The notes below the pieces were generated by a model. The model worked only from the letters and a program-made list of their open reading frames with translations. It was not told the origin of the DNA and made no database searches. Shown piece by piece: positions 3,699-53,047 of a stretch of 64,000 bases of DNA (the first letter of the stretch is position 1; each line of letters starts with the position of its first letter). The stretch is from Thermoplasmatota archaeon (GTDB lineage Archaea > Thermoplasmatota > Thermoplasmata > UBA10834), in NCBI GenBank assembly GCA_040751795.1, contig JBFMHR010000002.1:340091-404090 (forward strand). The letters run 5' to 3'. Position numbers and translations under genes: made by a program.

Positions 3699-3757
3699 GG
3701 CACAATTCGATGCTTTGTCGGACAATCGTCCAACAGGTAAGGGATGGGAAACCTACC

Positions 3758-4411
3758 ATGAGAAAGTATCTCAAGGAGGACGAGCTAAAGGCGTTGCTCG
3801 AGGCTCCTCGACGGATGCGCGACCGTCTGATCATCAAACTCATGTACGAAACGGGGATGCGGGTAGGCGAGCTAGCAGCCTTGACAATCGGTGACGTGGA
3901 CCTCGAGTCGGGCGAGATCACGATCCAGAGGGCGAAGAGGCACGAGGAGGGGCGCAAGGTCCCCATAGTCGACAGCTGGACCAAGACGATGCTCCACGAC
4001 TACATCGGCACCAGGAAGATACGGAAGGACCCGCTCTTCGTCTCCAACAAGCGCGGCCCGCTGTCCAGGCGGCAGGTTGAGCGCCTGGTCTCCAACTACG
4101 CGGAGAAGGCCGGGATCGAGCCAGACAAGCGCCATCCGCACGTCCTGAGGCACACTCACGCGGTCCACGCCCTGAAGTCTGGCATAGACCTGAGGACGCT
4201 CCAGCAGAACCTGGGCCACTCCAGCATCGAGGTCACGGCCATATACCTCACGATGGACATCGACGACAGGAAGGAGGCGTACTCGAAGCACCCGCTGCCT
4301 GGCATGTCCGAGCACGCGGAGCCAGATGACGCCGAGGAGGGCCACGCGGGCGAGGCGCTCACTGTGCACTCCAATCACTCGAGCTCGTTCGTGCTCTCAG
4401 GTGATGTTTAG
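3758..4411 (+). CDS. Tyrosine recombinase/integrase (XerA/XerC-like, catalytic domain only)
   Basis: Intact catalytic set: ETGMRVGEL (R), HPHVLRH (HxxR), LGHSS (H), TAIYL (Y); ATG 3758 preferred over the track start 3710. Confidence 0.9.
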   Translation: MRKYLKEDELKALLEAPRRMRDRLIIKLMYETGMRVGELAALTIGDVDLESGEITIQRAKRHEEGRKVPIVDSWTKTMLHDYIGTRKIRKDPLFVSNKRGPLSRRQVERLVSNYAEKAGIEPDKRHPHVLRHTHAVHALKSGIDLRTLQQNLGHSSIEVTAIYLTMDIDDRKEAYSKHPLPGMSEHAEPDDAEEGHAGEALTVHSNHSSSFVLSGDV

Positions 4412-17292: not shown

Positions 17293-17339
17293 CGCCTATG
17301 TTGCCAGTCTGCTTCCGCAATCTCACCTGAGCCATAAGG

Positions 17340-17424
17340 TGCAGGGGCGCGGATTCGAACCGCGGAACCACTTCTGGACAAGGTCCTAAGCCTTGCGCCG
17401 TTGGCCTGTCTTGGCTACCCCTGC
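17340..17424 (-). tRNA. tRNA-Leu(UAG)
   Basis: GCAGGGG/CCCCTGC acceptor stem, CAAGG-CT-TAG-GA-CCTTG anticodon arm, long variable arm, GTTCGAATC T loop. Confidence 0.95.
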
Positions 17425-22644: not shown

Positions 22645-23421
22645 TCAGAAGGACCCGGGGCCGAAGTTGCCCAGCATCGGGTTGAGGTCGGCGTGTATGA
22701 ACTGCTCGTGCTCCTGCGGCGGCCTGACGGGCATCGGCTCCTCGAAGGCGTCCCCGTACCCGACGACGTCCTCCATGAGGGTCGACACGTACGAGCTGGT
22801 CTGGTCGCTGACGCTCTCGACGATCTTCATGACGCTCCTGTCTATGACCTTCAGCGCCTCGGACATTGGGATGTCGTCGGCGAGGCCCACGAGCTTGTTG
22901 TTGTCCAGGACGATCGTGAAGCTGGCGCTCTCCTTGAGCTTGGCCAGCCCGTCGGCGGCGGCCTCGGACCTGCCCTCGTGCTCGAAGGGCATGATCGGCA
23001 GCGCGAACGAGACGGCGTTCGTCTCCCTGGCGACGCTCGCGACCACCGGCGCCACGCCGGTCCCGGTCCCGCCGCCCATCCCTGCCACCACGAATATGAT
23101 GTCGTAGCCCCTGATCGCCTCGCGGATGACCTCGCGCGCCTTCTCGGCACAGTGCTCCCCGACCTCGGGGTACCCTCCGGCGTCCTTGCCGAAGGCCACG
23201 TTCTTGCCTATCAGCACCTTCCTGTGGGCGTCGACCTTCTTCAGGTGCTCCTCGTCGGTGTTGATCGCGACGGTCTCCACCCTGTTGTGCTTCCAGTACA
23301 TCCCGTGCACTATGTTCGAGCCAGCTCCGCCGCATCCCACGACCGCGATGGTCGGCTCTCCCAAGCTCACTCCAAGCGAGTTTAGTATCTCCTCGGTCCT
23401 GCTCCCTTCTTCCGCCGTCAT
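22645..23421 (-). CDS. ftsZ: Truncated FtsZ/tubulin-family protein (N-terminal GTP-binding domain only)
   Basis: VVGCGGAGSN, AINTD, GMGGGTGTG, PFEHEG, LDNNKL; no NxDxxD T7 loop, only 258 aa. Confidence 0.85.
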   Translation of the reverse strand: MTAEEGSRTEEILNSLGVSLGEPTIAVVGCGGAGSNIVHGMYWKHNRVETVAINTDEEHLKKVDAHRKVLIGKNVAFGKDAGGYPEVGEHCAEKAREVIREAIRGYDIIFVVAGMGGGTGTGVAPVVASVARETNAVSFALPIMPFEHEGRSEAAADGLAKLKESASFTIVLDNNKLVGLADDIPMSEALKVIDRSVMKIVESVSDQTSSYVSTLMEDVVGYGDAFEEPMPVRPPQEHEQFIHADLNPMLGNFGPGSF

Positions 23422-23511: not shown

Positions 23512-23889
23512 CTATGTCTTCGGGACCACCTTGACCGCGCTCCGCTGCTGGTTCGCGTCCATCTTCAGCGTCTCCACATGCTCCGTGCGGAGGAACTGGT
23601 GGCGCGCGCAGTCGGCCAGTGCCTCGGACGTCGAGTTGTAGACGCCCTCGGCCACCAGGTGCGCGATCGTGTCCAGAACGAGCGGTGGCAGTTCCACGAC
23701 GACCTCGTTCAGCTTCTTGGTCCCCTCGGCACACCCGATCTTCGCCTCAACGTACGCGCGTATCGCGGCGCGCGCAAGTTGGGACCTGTTGGAGAACTCG
23801 TTGCTAGCCGAGATGAACTCGTCTATCAGACGCAGGTCGTCCGCGTCCAACCGAAGAGTTATCCGCTCGTTCTCCAAGGGGTCGTTCAA
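23512..23889 (-). CDS. Ribbon-helix-helix (CopG/Arc-MetJ, CdrS-like) regulator with two RHH units
   Basis: ERITLRL...FSNRSQLARAAIR and VVVELP...GVYNSTSEAL; lies upstream of ftsZ. Confidence 0.85.
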   Translation of the reverse strand: MNDPLENERITLRLDADDLRLIDEFISASNEFSNRSQLARAAIRAYVEAKIGCAEGTKKLNEVVVELPPLVLDTIAHLVAEGVYNSTSEALADCARHQFLRTEHVETLKMDANQQRSAVKVVPKT

Positions 23890-23924: not shown

Positions 23925-23989
23925 GACATATGTCATACGACCGTATATATAGGTATCCGAAATGTCACATTTCGTCTGATTATGTCATA
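23925..23989. promoter_or_regulatory. Promoter/operator of the RHH-ftsZ operon
   Basis: TATATATA 23944-23951 flanked by ATGTCA(T/C)A at 23930, 23962 and 23982; palindromes GACATATGTC and CGAAATGT-C-ACATTTCG. Confidence 0.6.
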
Positions 23990-35386: not shown

Positions 35387-35453
35387 GCGCCAGGTCGCTG
35401 GCGGGTTCGACACCTTTTTAGCACCGTACTGAGTTGACGTCGCAGGGACTGGG

Positions 35454-35885
35454 ATGACTGTTGTCACCATGCAACAGGTAGAACTGGCGCTCAAGAGGAC
35501 CCTCGGCAAGAAGGGCATGTCCGACGAGGAGGTCAAGCGCATGGCCGAGTATCTCATGAGCTTCTTCGGCTACACGGACGAGGTCATAGACAACAGGCTC
35601 ACCCCGGAGGACAGGGACGTATTCTACATGCTGGAGGAGGAGGGACTCCTCACCACGACCCAGGAGGAGGTCCTCCTGAAGAAGGGGAAGCTCTGGAGGA
35701 TACACTACTGGATCCTGAAGAAGGACCAGATCATACGCCTCGCCTCCTCCGACGAGGGGGGCAAGGACAAGGAGGCGGCGACCGAGGACGTCTACGACCA
35801 GCTGTCGGACGAGGAGTGGGCCCGGCACAGGCCACCCGTGTCCGGCGCGCCCGAGGACCGGCCGCCCAAGGATGAAACGACTTAA
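35454..35885 (+). CDS. DUF6015-like protein
   Basis: FFGY...IDNRL..EDRDVFYMLEEEGLL...GKLWRIHYW; family recognised from memory. Confidence 0.75.
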   Translation: MTVVTMQQVELALKRTLGKKGMSDEEVKRMAEYLMSFFGYTDEVIDNRLTPEDRDVFYMLEEEGLLTTTQEEVLLKKGKLWRIHYWILKKDQIIRLASSDEGGKDKEAATEDVYDQLSDEEWARHRPPVSGAPEDRPPKDETT

Positions 35886-50231: not shown

Positions 50232-51575
50232 TCAGGCCCCCTTCGCGGATATGTCCGCGTCCTTGAACTGTTTCATGAGCTGGCGCCGGACCTTCCTGTT
50301 GCCCATGAAGCCCTTCATGGCCTTCTTGGACATGTTGTACTGCTTCAGGAGCTCCTTGACGTCCTTGGGGGTGGTCCCGCTCCCCCTCGCTATCCGGATG
50401 ACCCTCGAGGACTTGATGACCTTCGGGTCCTCGAGCTCCTCGTCCGTCATGGAGTCCATTATGACCCTGAACCTCTGGAGGCGCTCCTGCGTGGCCTCCA
50501 TGTCCTGCTCCTTGATCTTGTCGGCGAAGCCAGGCAGCATCGAGGTGATCTTCTTGAGGGGGCCCATGCCCTGGAGCATCTCCATCTGGTCGTACATGTC
50601 CTTGAGGGAGAACTTGCCGGAGAGCATCTTCCGGGCGGCCTCCTCGGCCTTCTCCTCGTCGACCACCTGGCTCGCGCTCTCGATGAGGGACTTCAGGTCC
50701 CCCATCCCCAGCATCCTGCTTATGAACCTGTCCGGGTCGAAGCGCTCGAGGTCCTCCAGGTGCTCTCCGACGCCGATGTAGCATATGGGCGCGCCGGTCT
50801 CGGCGACCGCGCTGAGGGCGCCGCCGCCCTTGGCGGTGCCGTCGAGCTTGGTTATGATGACCCCGGTGAGGCCCACCGCGTCGTGGAACGCCTTGGCCTG
50901 GGGCCCGGCCTGCTGGCCCGTCTGGGCGTCGAGGACGAGGATCTTCTGCTCCGCGTCGACCGTCTTGGCGACGTCCTCGATCTCCCTGATGAGCCCGTCC
51001 TCGAGGGAGTGCCTCCCCGAGGTGTCGAATATGATGACGTCGTAGCCGTCGAACTCCTTCAGCGCCCTCTTGGCGATCTTCGTGGCGCTCTTCTCCCTGG
51101 GGTCGCCGAACACGGGGACGTTGAGCTTGGCGCCCAGCTGGACGAGCTGGTCGTAGGCGGCGGGCCTGTGGACGTCCGCCGCCACTAGCCCCACCTTCAT
51201 CCCCCTCTTGTGGAGGTCCTTGGCCAGCTTCCCGGAGGTGGTGGTCTTCCCCTGCCCGTACAGGCCGACCATGAGTATCCTTTGGGGCTTGGCGGGGATC
51301 TCCTTCCCCTTGCCGAGGATCCTGACCAGCTCCTCGTAGACGATCCTGATGACGTGCTCCCTCGGGCTCATCCCCGCCGGGGGCTTCTCGGTGAGCGCCC
51401 GGTCCTCCAACTCCTTGGTCATCCGGAGGACCAGCTTCACGTTGACATCGGCCTGGAGGAGCGCGCGCTGGACGTCCTTGACGACCTCCTTCACCAGCTT
51501 CTGGTCGACGTGCGAGGCGTTCGCTATCTTCTTGATCGCGTCCCTGAGCGCCCCGCCGAGCCCTTCCAGCACCAT
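50232..51575 (-). CDS. srp54: Signal recognition particle protein SRP54
   Basis: [34 protein letters not shown]-domain [11 protein letters not shown]. Confidence 0.96.
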
Positions 51576-51643
51576 TCAGACCGACCTCCGCGCTAACGCT
51601 CCACTGCGGATAAATATGTTGTGCAGAGAGCGCCTGGACGAAC

Positions 51644-51718
51644 AAAAAAAGGGAAGGGAAGGGCTAGCCTTGTCAGAAGGGATGGGATGCACTCTAACAA
51701 CTAGCCCAAAATTTCCCT
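51644..51718 (-). ncRNA. Candidate ~75-nt hairpin sRNA with a C-rich antisense loop
   Basis: TTTAAATA box 51747-51740; stems AGGGAA/UUCCCU, GGGCUAG/CUAGCCC, UUGUUAGA/UCUGACAA; loop GUGCAUCCCAUCCCU; U7 tail. Confidence 0.7.
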
Positions 51719-51878
51719 GATGATATATTATCCGTGTGCTATTTAAACTTATCGAGCCGCGGCTTAAATACCTTGCGCGGCCCCCGCCCCCTCCCCGGGG
51801 ACCTAGCCAGCATGTCCTGCGGGGAACGTCGCTTTTCATACTGGCGCATACCCCCTGTTCCGGTGCTGCATGTGCAGG

Positions 51879-52754
51879 TCACATGTACCCGGACTTCTGG
51901 AGGACCATTATGTCCTCCGTGCTGAGCTTCTCGCCGCTCTTGAACTTGTCGAAGATCTCCTCGGCCTCCCGCTTCGCGGTGTCGTCGTCCTTCTCCTTCC
52001 GCGCCTTGCGGGTCTTGTCCCTGATGCCGGAGATGAGCTTGTCGAAGTCGTGGACCTGCCTTATGTGGTCAATGTGCTGCCTGTGCTCCTCGTCCGCGGT
52101 CAGCTTCGCCTCTATGAACTTCTCCTGGGCGTCGTCGGCCTCCTTCCTGAGCCTGTCCGCCTCCTCGTAGAGCTTGAGCATGGCGTCGTGCTCGGCCTGG
52201 GCCTTCTCGGCGAACTCGGAGACCTGCCTGTGGAACCCCTCGGCGAGCTCCTTCGCGTCGTGGGCCTCCTGCTCGGCGACCTTGACCTCCGTGAACTGCT
52301 CCATCTCCTTCTCCATGGCCTTGATCCTCTTGGAGAGCTCGCCCATCTCCTCGACCAGGGCCCTCTCCTTCTCCACGGACAGGACGGACGTCATGTGCCT
52401 CTTCTCGAGGGCCCTGAGCTCGGCCTTGAACTTCCGTATGGACTGGCCGCTCCTGGGCATCTTCTCGCGCTTGAGGTCGATGACCTTGTCGCTGAGCTCG
52501 TTGAACTTCCTGTTGTACTCGTCCCGCTTGGCCTTGACCTCCCTGACCTCGGCGTTGAGCTTGTCCCTCATCTCGCGCTTGGCGTTCGCCTCCTCGATGA
52601 GCCTCCTGACCTGGGCGTTGAGTTGGTCCCTGCGGTCCGCCCACTCGCGGGTCTTCTCGTTGAGCTCGTCCCGCTGCCTCTTGTGGCGCTCGGCGTCCGA
52701 GTTGTGGCGGGCCCTCTTCTCTTCGAGTTCAGGAATCAGCTCGGTCTCAGTCAT
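51879..52754 (-). CDS. Archaeal coiled-coil protein (COG1340-like)
   Basis: Repeated RDELN/RDQLN/RDKLN heptads; C-terminal FKSGEKLSTEDI. Confidence 0.85.
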   Translation of the reverse strand: MTETELIPELEEKRARHNSDAERHKRQRDELNEKTREWADRRDQLNAQVRRLIEEANAKREMRDKLNAEVREVKAKRDEYNRKFNELSDKVIDLKREKMPRSGQSIRKFKAELRALEKRHMTSVLSVEKERALVEEMGELSKRIKAMEKEMEQFTEVKVAEQEAHDAKELAEGFHRQVSEFAEKAQAEHDAMLKLYEEADRLRKEADDAQEKFIEAKLTADEEHRQHIDHIRQVHDFDKLISGIRDKTRKARKEKDDDTAKREAEEIFDKFKSGEKLSTEDIMVLQKSGYM

Positions 52755-53047
52755 GCGAACTACCAACGCCGTCAGAACATGCTGTCAGTCTGGACGCAGT
52801 CAGGACAATACTAGGTCCCGTTTATATCTTTTTCTATCGATGGCTCTCGGTTGTGGGAGGGCCGGGACGGGGGCCAGTCCGCCATGGGCGGCGGCGCGGA
52901 CGCGGTCGGGGGGCCTTCGGCGAGTGCGAGCCAGCATGTCGCGGTGTTATCATGGCTGATTACCGGGACGACACCCGTATAAGTCCCCCGGGCGTTAGTT
53001 CCAACAACGAGCTAGCACTGGGCTCGGAGGGTTCGCAGGAGGACGGT

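Follow-up and report, generated by a model that had tools for sequence, protein, structure and literature searches.

A widely conserved structured RNA of Thermoplasmatota and its candidate pairing with the leaders of division-related genes

To our knowledge, only a few regulatory small RNAs (sRNAs) have been described in Archaea, and these are lineage-restricted and mostly lack defined targets. Methanosarcina mazei sRNA41 is a trans-acting sRNA proposed to mask the ribosome-binding sites of several mRNAs, and archaeal sRNAs of this masking type are not known to extend beyond a genus or family. In bacteria, the RNAIII hairpins and RsaE/RoxS of Firmicutes expose a UCCC loop that pairs with GGGA-type ribosome-binding sites and blocks initiation; DicF acts in trans by pairing with the ribosome-binding site of ftsZ, with an effect on division; and the 6C sRNA is linked to replication and division phenotypes. 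Here, we analyzed a 64-kb stretch (the window; contig JBFMHR010000002.1 of assembly GCA_040751795.1) from the 2.05-Mb genome of a Thermoplasmatota archaeon (G000), focusing on a hairpin between the DUF7121 gene and srp54. As judged from sequence comparison, positions 51717-51644 of the minus strand very probably constitute a genuine structured RNA gene, and its C-rich apical loop, UGCAUCCCAUCCC, is complementary to the start regions of unlinked genes, including ftsZ-like genes. The best reading is that the RNA acts by pairing with these leaders, as a trans-acting sRNA whose C-rich loop masks start regions, to which we assign a probability of roughly 60%; we infer that the RNA is made, that it pairs in the cell, and in which direction it acts.

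The RNA would follow the same UCCC-loop principle as RNAIII and RsaE/RoxS without homology to these bacterial RNAs. Its putative target motif differs from that in Firmicutes: it is a tandem GGGAU repeat, 10-13 nt long, at the very 5' terminus of leaders that are themselves very short, and it often takes in the start codon. Compared with RNAs of the sRNA41 type, the present family spans many families of its phylum and differs in sequence and targets. According to PMC6486639, the actinobacterial 6C sRNA is, like the present RNA, widely conserved, with C-rich loops that bind multiple mRNAs; it is bacterial and has another sequence and fold, whereas here a single loop with tandem AUCCC units is conserved across an archaeal phylum. 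DicF of Escherichia coli is presented in PMC5069750 as an sRNA controlling metabolism and cell division. It is prophage-encoded and narrowly distributed, whereas the present RNA is a core syntenic gene of unrelated sequence. In Halobacteria, an RHH gene is co-transcribed with an ftsZ paralogue (cdrS-ftsZ2), an arrangement that is reported to be conserved across Euryarchaeota and to serve as a control point of division (PMC7439475). There, the proteins CdrS and CdrL control ftsZ2 at the level of transcription, whereas the layer proposed here consists of RNA, and we liken the RHH-ftsZ gene arrangement alone. By analogy, the present RNA would work like the C-rich-loop sRNAs and DicF while being a member of none of those families.

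The RNA gene and its family

The initial annotation had described an independent minus-strand unit upstream of srp54, with a promoter box, a hairpin, and a U7 end, and all of these features were recovered (Table 1). The srp54 gene has its own TATA-like box (~51618-51611), as had also been claimed, and a GGAGGU Shine-Dalgarno sequence, both lying 3' of the T7 run. When folded with ViennaRNA, the minus strand formed a rod of three tiers at -28.9 kcal/mol (z = -2.46), with 1 of 200 shuffled sequences equally stable, and the apical loop was unpaired in both the minimum-free-energy and the centroid folds. The plus strand yielded a weaker fold (z = -1.66) because three U.G/G.U pairs turn into A.C mismatches. 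The upstream box and the sense-oriented T-run of family members (counts below) support the earlier choice of the minus strand as the RNA strand. The AATATA between the TATA box and the predicted start is placed as an archaeal promoter-proximal element would be, and it may function as one.

A DNA search of 40 relatives revealed that the 74-nt stretch is 80-97% identical as far as other families of the class and that its flanks diverge. In an alignment of 35 loci, the 47-nt core formed by P2, P3, and the loop was identical in 27, the 13-nt loop was invariant in all 35, an A/T-rich octamer occupied a fixed column upstream, and a T-run followed downstream. Since the internal loops carry single-base indels among relatives, the locus contains no coding frame. 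Subfamilies differ in the stems that surround the one loop (GGGCUAG/CUAGCCC, GGCUGG/CCAGCC, GGUCAG/CUGGCC, GGCCAG/CUGGCC, and GACCGG/CCGGUC), and all of them fold to the same rod.

Stem covariation was assessed using a covariance model (R1) built from 24 sequences with the structure supplied by hand; a plain MAFFT alignment examined with RNAalifold gave 5 pairs only, with one subfamily misaligned, and the model-based alignment was used instead. R1 recovered 99 members from 100 loci. Across these members, a standard pair was formed in 90.2% of cells, compared with 39-56% when the partners were slid, and changes on both sides were found in 17 of the 21 stem pairs. Double-change cells numbered 194 versus 60.5 +/- 10.8 in shuffles, a value that none of the 500 shuffles reached. 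Covariation extends to each of the 13 pairs in P1 and P2 (8 of them in P2), which have changes on both sides, and P3 and the loop are nearly invariant. The loop conservation and compensatory stem changes that the initial annotation had put forward as a check were thus both found (35/35 and 17/21, respectively). In addition, the 11-mer GCAUCCCAUCC was present in 98/98 model matches, an AT-rich octamer lay at -50 to -10 in 95/98 family members, and a run of at least five T lay at the 3' end in 68/98 members in the sense orientation versus 8/97 in antisense.

The family is broad. In collections with one genome per species, at least 120 contigs contain an exact copy of the 17-mer AGAGTGCATCCCATCCC; among the matches listed, three titles are bacterial and the rest read Thermoplasmata, Thermoplasmatota, Methanomassiliicoccales, Methanomethylophilaceae, or broader archaeal labels (e.g., Methanobacteriota, Euryarchaeota, and Methanomicrobia). 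The bacterial-labelled bins (L053, L093, and L118: Lachnospiraceae, Bacteroidaceae, and Bacteroides salyersiae) contain an archaeal DUF7121-RNA-srp54 locus and are therefore probably contaminated. Under strict filters, R1 gave matches in 68 of 151 evenly sampled genomes of the phylum, and all six of the no-match genomes inspected contained divergent hairpins with the same loop, as judged by eye; the family is therefore close to phylum-wide, a breadth that the initial annotation underrated. The DUF7121-RNA-srp54 order on one strand is kept in many lineages, not in all: among 120 listed family loci, 38 have a same-strand srp54 start <200 nt downstream, a DUF7121 gene was found in 50 (within 300 nt in 47), and no srp54 was found in 72, in stretches of up to 8 kb. 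As a separate observation, one genome (G041; loci L254, L256, L258, L270, and L272) carries, on at least three contigs, a multi-copy element in which the loop 12-mer and its complement lie ~40 nt apart on one strand and form a long inverted repeat.

We also compared the locus with known RNA classes. At gathering thresholds, Rfam 15 returned no family at the locus (SRP RNA and one tRNA were its only matches in the window), and with E up to 10 nothing in 51300-52100, 6C included, overlapped 51644-51717; the Rfam scan proposed earlier is thus consistent with an undescribed RNA. Neither ARAGORN nor Rfam made a tRNA or tRNA-like call there. A box C/D guide was rejected, there being no C box on the minus strand and no C/D model match at the locus, as was an H/ACA guide, the 3' flank reading UUCCCUUCCCU7 with no Rfam match. 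No complement longer than 7 nt was found in 16S, 23S, or SRP RNA (longest, 7 nt in 16S and 6 nt in 23S), making a guide function on those RNAs unlikely. No description of the RNA was found in the literature searched, nor in passages of PMC4153887 and bioRxiv 10.1101/538918; the former states in its methods that noncoding RNAs of Methanomassiliicoccales were annotated by Rfam alone. The locus shows several features expected of a trans-encoded base-pairing sRNA: a promoter and terminator of its own, a stable structure with an unpaired conserved putative seed, and complementary sites in the start regions of unlinked mRNAs above chance, conserved in four leaders. As a regulator, it would be a new family of an already known type; its conservation is unusually deep for an sRNA.

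Complementary motifs at gene starts

The complement of the loop is GGGAUGGGAUGCA, and the G-rich leader motif can also be written GGGAUGGGAUG(CA) or GGGAUGGG. With at most one mismatch, GGGATGGGATGCA occurred in 3-17 copies per genome in 41/41 relatives versus 0-1 copies for a reversed control, and it was present in 149 of 151 genomes of the phylum. A strong enrichment at starts, which the initial annotation had put up for testing, was found, the motif being strictly oriented and promoter-proximal. In G000, the 14-mer has only three copies in 2.05 Mb (one in the RNA gene, one in the RHH-ftsZ leader, and one in a second hairpin, which lies on a different contig), and the ten GGGATGGGATGCA-type matches comprise the two hairpins and eight sites. 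At six of these eight sites the start codon lies inside the motif or no more than 3 nt after it; the other two (C1:242070 and C23:80419) have no clear start adjoining it. The genes at the eight sites are the RHH-ftsZ-like operon, a full-length FtsZ paralogue (Tubulin and FtsZ_C domains), a HerA/DUF87 ATPase, a Na+/H+ exchanger, and four small or unknown open reading frames (ORFs). Several genes outside the window, among them the FtsZ paralogue and the HerA-like ATPase, carry better sites than sites 2-5 of Table 1 and were underrated previously. Sites with two mismatches in the same promoter context precede genes for a histidine-kinase-type ATPase, a zinc-ribbon protein, a DUF835 protein, a second exchanger, a glycosyltransferase, and CorA.

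The placement of the motif relative to promoters was examined using its core, GATGGGATG, in G000. An AT-rich octamer lay at -70 to -15 for 16 of 22 copies, compared with a mean of 1.2 of 19.6 and a maximum of 5 for 29 control permutations ending in ATG. An AT-rich box <80 nt upstream was found for 17/22 copies in the sense orientation versus 5/22 in antisense, and the nearest box mostly lay 24-37 nt ahead. By the 30-nt ruler of the sRNA promoter, this spacing puts the motif on the transcription start of very short leaders or directly behind it. Long ORFs in distant genomes, such as those for a Cdc6/Orc1 and an SMC-type protein, often begin with the second AUG of the motif itself.

We next consider the individual leaders. 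All five matches that the initial annotation had reported at starts in the window are present, and sites 1-4 differ in conservation. At the RHH-ftsZ-like operon (site 1), 26 of 27 loci, comprising the family and one order-level relative, have the 13-mer without any change between varying flanks; locus L252 lacks it. For the full-length FtsZ paralogue, GGAUGGGAU(G) lies 0-6 nt ahead of the ATG in 24 of 25 readable loci, five of the motif-bearing ones coming from outside the family (one order-level and four class-level), and also in G039; L226 lacks the motif, and the count leaves out L198 (unreadable at a contig end), L212 and L218 (5'-truncated), and L224 and L225 (paralogue-level). The recombinase leader (site 2) keeps AGGGATGGG / AGGGAUGGG in 14/14 family loci with varying flanks; outside the family, the three order-level loci have GAAGGGAAAGGGAU. 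The two class-level loci differ: L322 has AGAAGGGAU, and the other carries a canonical GGUGAUC; the truncated L323 was left out. The DUF6015 leader (site 4) reads GGGA-YN-GGG|AUG in 16/16 family loci, in which the two middle bases alone vary, and in 0/3 loci of other families; L356 and L366 (contig ends) and L373-L375 (paralogue-level) are not counted. The variable middle bases would fit bulged pairing to the two UCCC units of the loop. Site 3 exists ahead of its ATG and is probably a chance or Shine-Dalgarno-like match: several relatives have GGUGAGG- or GGAG-type purine-rich stretches there instead, in a count that leaves out weaker paralogue-level matches. As for the proposed sRNA regulon, the RNA gene, the oriented sites, and the conservation of sites 1, 2, and 4 hold up, site 3 falls away, and action in trans is putative.

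Some further observations concern these promoters and genes. The RHH-ftsZ promoter contains a perfect palindrome, GACATATGTC (~23925-23934, minus strand), between its TATATATA box and the target motif; the palindrome or a near-identical variant (e.g., CACATATGT, TACATATGT, or GACATATC) occurs in nearly all family relatives and not in the order-level locus L253, and it is a candidate autoregulatory operator of the RHH protein. Several promoters, those of the recombinase and two others having GTCGGACAATCGTC-type repeats, contain GTCGGACAATCGTC or an inverted repeat, GTCCGAC..GTCGGAC, in the interval from the TATA box to the G-rich motif (window 3717-3730, plus strand; elsewhere in the genome C12:14335, minus; C34:242771, plus; and ~C1:242045), the exact 14-mer of this repeat having just 2 copies in the genome; it might serve as an operator for a repressor or form a hairpin at the 5' terminus of the mRNA. 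That the palindromes differ between promoters would fit separate transcriptional inputs under one post-transcriptional regulator. An FtsZ query gave 6-8 matches at E <= 1e-40 in 19 of 25 family genomes (G000 counted), that is, several FtsZ/tubulin paralogues, of which only the one full-length paralogue and the RHH-linked short one bear the motif. The neighbour transcribed divergently from it, C51:15683, carries AUGGGGUGCACUC, a sequence that could pair with the sRNA via one G.U pair.

Table 1. Positions of the RNA gene, its neighbours, the complementary sites, and the second hairpin (window coordinates unless a contig is named)
Feature	Position	Strand	Remarks
Predicted 74-nt sRNA	51717-51644	minus	GGGAAAUUUU, P2-P3 hairpin, UUCCCUUCCC, U7
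TATA box	51747-51740	minus	TTTAAATA; first T 30 nt ahead of predicted 5' end
AATATA	51729-51724	minus	Between TATA box and start; conserved ..CAATATATCAC.. block in family relatives
GGGAAA, predicted 5' end	from 51717	minus	In DUF7121-srp54 intergenic region
Stem P1	51717-51713 / 51660-51656	minus	Pairing placed after relatives
Stem P2	51707-51700 / 51668-51661	minus	ViennaRNA fold
Stem P3	51699-51692 / 51678-51671	minus	ViennaRNA fold
AG bulge, 2 nt	51670-51669	minus	Between 3' arms of P3 and P2
Apical loop, 13 nt	51691-51679	minus	UGCAUCCCAUCCC; two tandem AUCCC units, proposed seed
T7 run	51650-51644	minus	Archaeal oligo-T terminator, after UUCCCUUCCC
srp54	50232-51575	minus	Downstream neighbour; ATG 51575
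DUF7121 gene	51879-52766	minus	Upstream neighbour; stop codon 162 nt ahead of sRNA 5' end
Site 1	23905-23892	minus	GGGATGGGATGCAC / GGGAUGGGAUGCAC; 14/14 complementary (loop and one stem base), 2 nt ahead of TTG 23889
RHH (CopG-type) gene	23512-23889	minus	125 aa, RHH_1 and RHH_8; first in targeted operon
FtsZ/tubulin-family gene	22645-23421	minus	258 aa, GTPase domain only (PF00091, E = 9e-39); after RHH gene
Site 2	3739-3749	plus	AAGGGATGGGA / AAGGGAUGGGA; 8 nt ahead of ATG 3758 of tyrosine recombinase (Phage_integrase family), coding sequence 3758-4411
Site 3	45469-45459	minus	AGAAGGGATGG / AGAAGGGAUGG; ahead of ATG 45454
Site 4	35444-35456	plus	AGGGActGGGATG / AGGGAcUGGGAUG; overlaps DUF6015 start (ATG 35454)
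Site 5	ahead of 55025		GAAGGGAT
Second hairpin	C34:240661-240692		Outside window, in region C34:240640-240700 (L021:4640-4700); begins within stop codon of 79-aa RHH gene, opposite strand

Proposed pairing with leaders weighed against other explanations

As a mechanism, we propose that the locus would be an independently transcribed gene for a 74-nt structured sRNA, the long, rigid, covarying stem of which would display the invariant 13-nt C-rich loop as a seed. The loop would pair in trans with GGGAUGGGAUG(CA), which stands at the 5' end of short leaders and either directly precedes the start codon or overlaps it; each genome would have ~10-15 such mRNAs. In G000, the targets would include the RHH-ftsZ-like operon, the full-length FtsZ paralogue, the HerA-like ATPase, the tyrosine recombinase, the DUF6015 protein, and cation/proton exchangers. 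Since such pairing would cover weak Shine-Dalgarno-like G-tracts and the start codon, blocked 30S binding, i.e., translational repression, would be the most likely effect, and mRNA stability might be altered as well.

Several points weigh against this proposal. Co-variation of loop and target, an earlier suggestion, did not materialize: it is impossible because the loop never varies, and the loop flanks, which differ between subfamilies (UUCU versus CUCC), are not mirrored in the target flanks, as judged by eye. In G039, the loop reads CGCAUCCC, and a GGGATGGGATGCG site exists in an ambiguous context, so that this case does not count as loop-target covariation. Site 3 is conserved in 1 of 10 orthologous loci, G000 only. 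The motif is G-rich with moderate anti-Shine-Dalgarno pairing, so some of its conservation could reflect ribosome binding. Fitting the covariation alignment to the model favours pairing, and gene starts and transcription start sites were inferred from sequence alone. As to expression, among Logan contigs from four runs, those from RNA libraries, which usually lose small RNAs, cover srp54 and DUF7121 only, and the single contig across the hairpin (51656-51729) comes from run X3, which is probably DNA; the listed RNA runs matched just 0.08-0.19 of the sampled words, and three additions from the same study matched next to none.

The alternative that fares best, which we nevertheless consider unlikely, holds that the RNA is real and that its conserved loop is there for a different interaction, with a protein or as a general anti-Shine-Dalgarno-like decoy, for example, while the leader motif is an independent ribosomal or protein start signal, so that the complementarity arises merely because both resemble a Shine-Dalgarno/anti-Shine-Dalgarno pair. 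An invariant loop would also fit a protein-contact site, CCUCC stands beside the loop in some subfamilies, and many members have a C-rich 3' tail. Pairing of the motif leaders with the 16S tail amounts to -7 to -12 kcal/mol, which is enough for a weak Shine-Dalgarno interaction, compared with -16.6 for srp54 and -22 for a perfect Shine-Dalgarno sequence. Conversely, the same leaders pair with the apical region of the RNA at -22 to -31 kcal/mol (RHH-ftsZ site, -30.9; perfect 13-bp duplex, -25.3). In 26 of 27 relatives, the RHH-ftsZ leader keeps all 13 bases, even the GCA, to which no 16S pairing extends, and a perfect 13-14-nt reverse complement found three times in 2 Mb goes beyond loose Shine-Dalgarno likeness. 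The 3' end of 16S is canonical (GGAUCACCUCCU), and the motif is therefore not an ordinary Shine-Dalgarno sequence; canonical GGAGGU is used by srp54 and other genes of the same genome, GGAGGT is ~3-fold enriched ahead of crude gene starts, and the perfect Shine-Dalgarno 9-mer is promoter-proximal at just 1 of 30 sites. On these grounds (16S tail, GGAGGT use, and 9-mer placement), an ordinary Shine-Dalgarno function was rejected as the whole explanation. The caveat of the initial annotation that the matches might partly be a Shine-Dalgarno variant is thus largely answered, the loop pairing being stronger than the 16S pairing, and a weak Shine-Dalgarno role is kept: the motif may have one, and under pairing with the sRNA this role would be what the masking RNA competes for.

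It is quite improbable that GGGATGGGATGCA is instead the DNA operator of a transcription factor at the regulon start sites, with the copy in the RNA gene as another operator. The motif does begin ~22-35 nt downstream of AT-rich boxes, near the predicted starts where archaeal repressors bind, and several of these promoters contain palindromes. The motif itself is non-palindromic, it is sense-oriented to the gene at the 17/22 versus 5/22 ratio given above, and its distance to the start codon is fixed or it includes that codon; the copy in the RNA gene is inverted at ~+27 to +39, inside the loop of a covarying hairpin.

Least probable of all is a cis element, i.e., a DUF7121 terminator or 3' untranslated region or an srp54 leader or attenuator rather than a separate RNA: the widely conserved DUF7121-hairpin-srp54 order on one strand and the terminator-like hairpin with its T-run would suit it, whereas it is opposed by the conserved TATA box 30 nt upstream and the conserved block between box and hairpin, by the separate TATA-like box and Shine-Dalgarno sequence of srp54 past the T7 run, by the 72/120 listed loci in which no srp54 was found in stretches of up to 8 kb, by an invariant 13-nt loop that a terminator does not need, and, as a weak hint, by an srp54 RNA contig of run X5 that ends at 51584.

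A second hairpin and wider implications

Every genome of the family contains a second 31-nt stretch that is 91-94% identical to the apical hairpin, an element at the 3' end of another RHH gene that the initial annotation had missed. On the RHH-gene strand, the hairpin is followed by GGAUNACCUCCCCCC and then by a conserved T7-8 run, whereas a T-run on the sRNA-sense strand was found in G000 only. A paralogous sRNA was considered and judged less likely, the hairpin following the RHH stop codon with a conserved T7 on that strand only. Most likely, it is a target-sense element in the 3' untranslated region of the RHH gene, the loop of which would show GGGAUGGGAUGCA. Having 31 nt of complementarity to the apical part of the sRNA, it could form a kissing or extended duplex with it. 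The second hairpin is conserved across the family, with a modified form at the order level, and the GGAUGACCUCCCCCC that follows it resembles the 3' end of 16S.

A more far-reaching version of the pairing proposal, which we regard as possible though doubtful, is that the RNA is an ancient, phylum-wide riboregulator of archaeal division and cell-cycle genes, acting by loop pairing at the 5' ends of short leaders and wired to the second, RHH-linked hairpin as a kissing or sponge pair. The candidate cell-cycle genes are the FtsZ paralogue, the RHH-ftsZ-like operon, the tyrosine recombinase, and the HerA-like ATPase here, and the SMC and Cdc6/Orc1 starts in distant lineages. If this version were true, no regulatory sRNA circuit acting in trans and conserved to such depth would have been known from Archaea before.

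The RNA family is unusual in combining a clear gene structure, strong stem covariation, and a seed that is invariant across many Thermoplasmatota families, including gut and environmental Methanomassiliicoccales. Among its conserved putative targets are ftsZ paralogues and an RHH-ftsZ operon like those known to control division in haloarchaea. If confirmed, the pairing would add a post-transcriptional layer to archaeal division control, would be an archaeal parallel to the bacterial C-rich-loop sRNAs, and would offer a ready seed/target pair for experiments. The analysis also points to very short, G-rich leaders as a class of their own, in organisms in which, to judge by promoter spacing, most leaders are short or absent.

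A few minor observations were made along the way. ARAGORN called an 87-nt tRNA-Leu at 17338-17424 (minus strand) that is absent from the Rfam tRNA matches at the gathering score. In G000, the 16S (C51:40939-42406) and 23S (C12:61671-65296) genes are on separate contigs, and the 23S match spans 3626 nt compared with the 2987 positions of the model, suggesting an insertion or intron of ~640 nt. Finally, RNA contigs from X1, X5, and X12 (three studies) and from the probably-DNA run X3 match the 3' end of DUF7121 at 51825-52000 with 95-99% identity, and all of them part from the window sequence at one point, 51825; close relatives of this archaeon are evidently widespread in soils and sediments.

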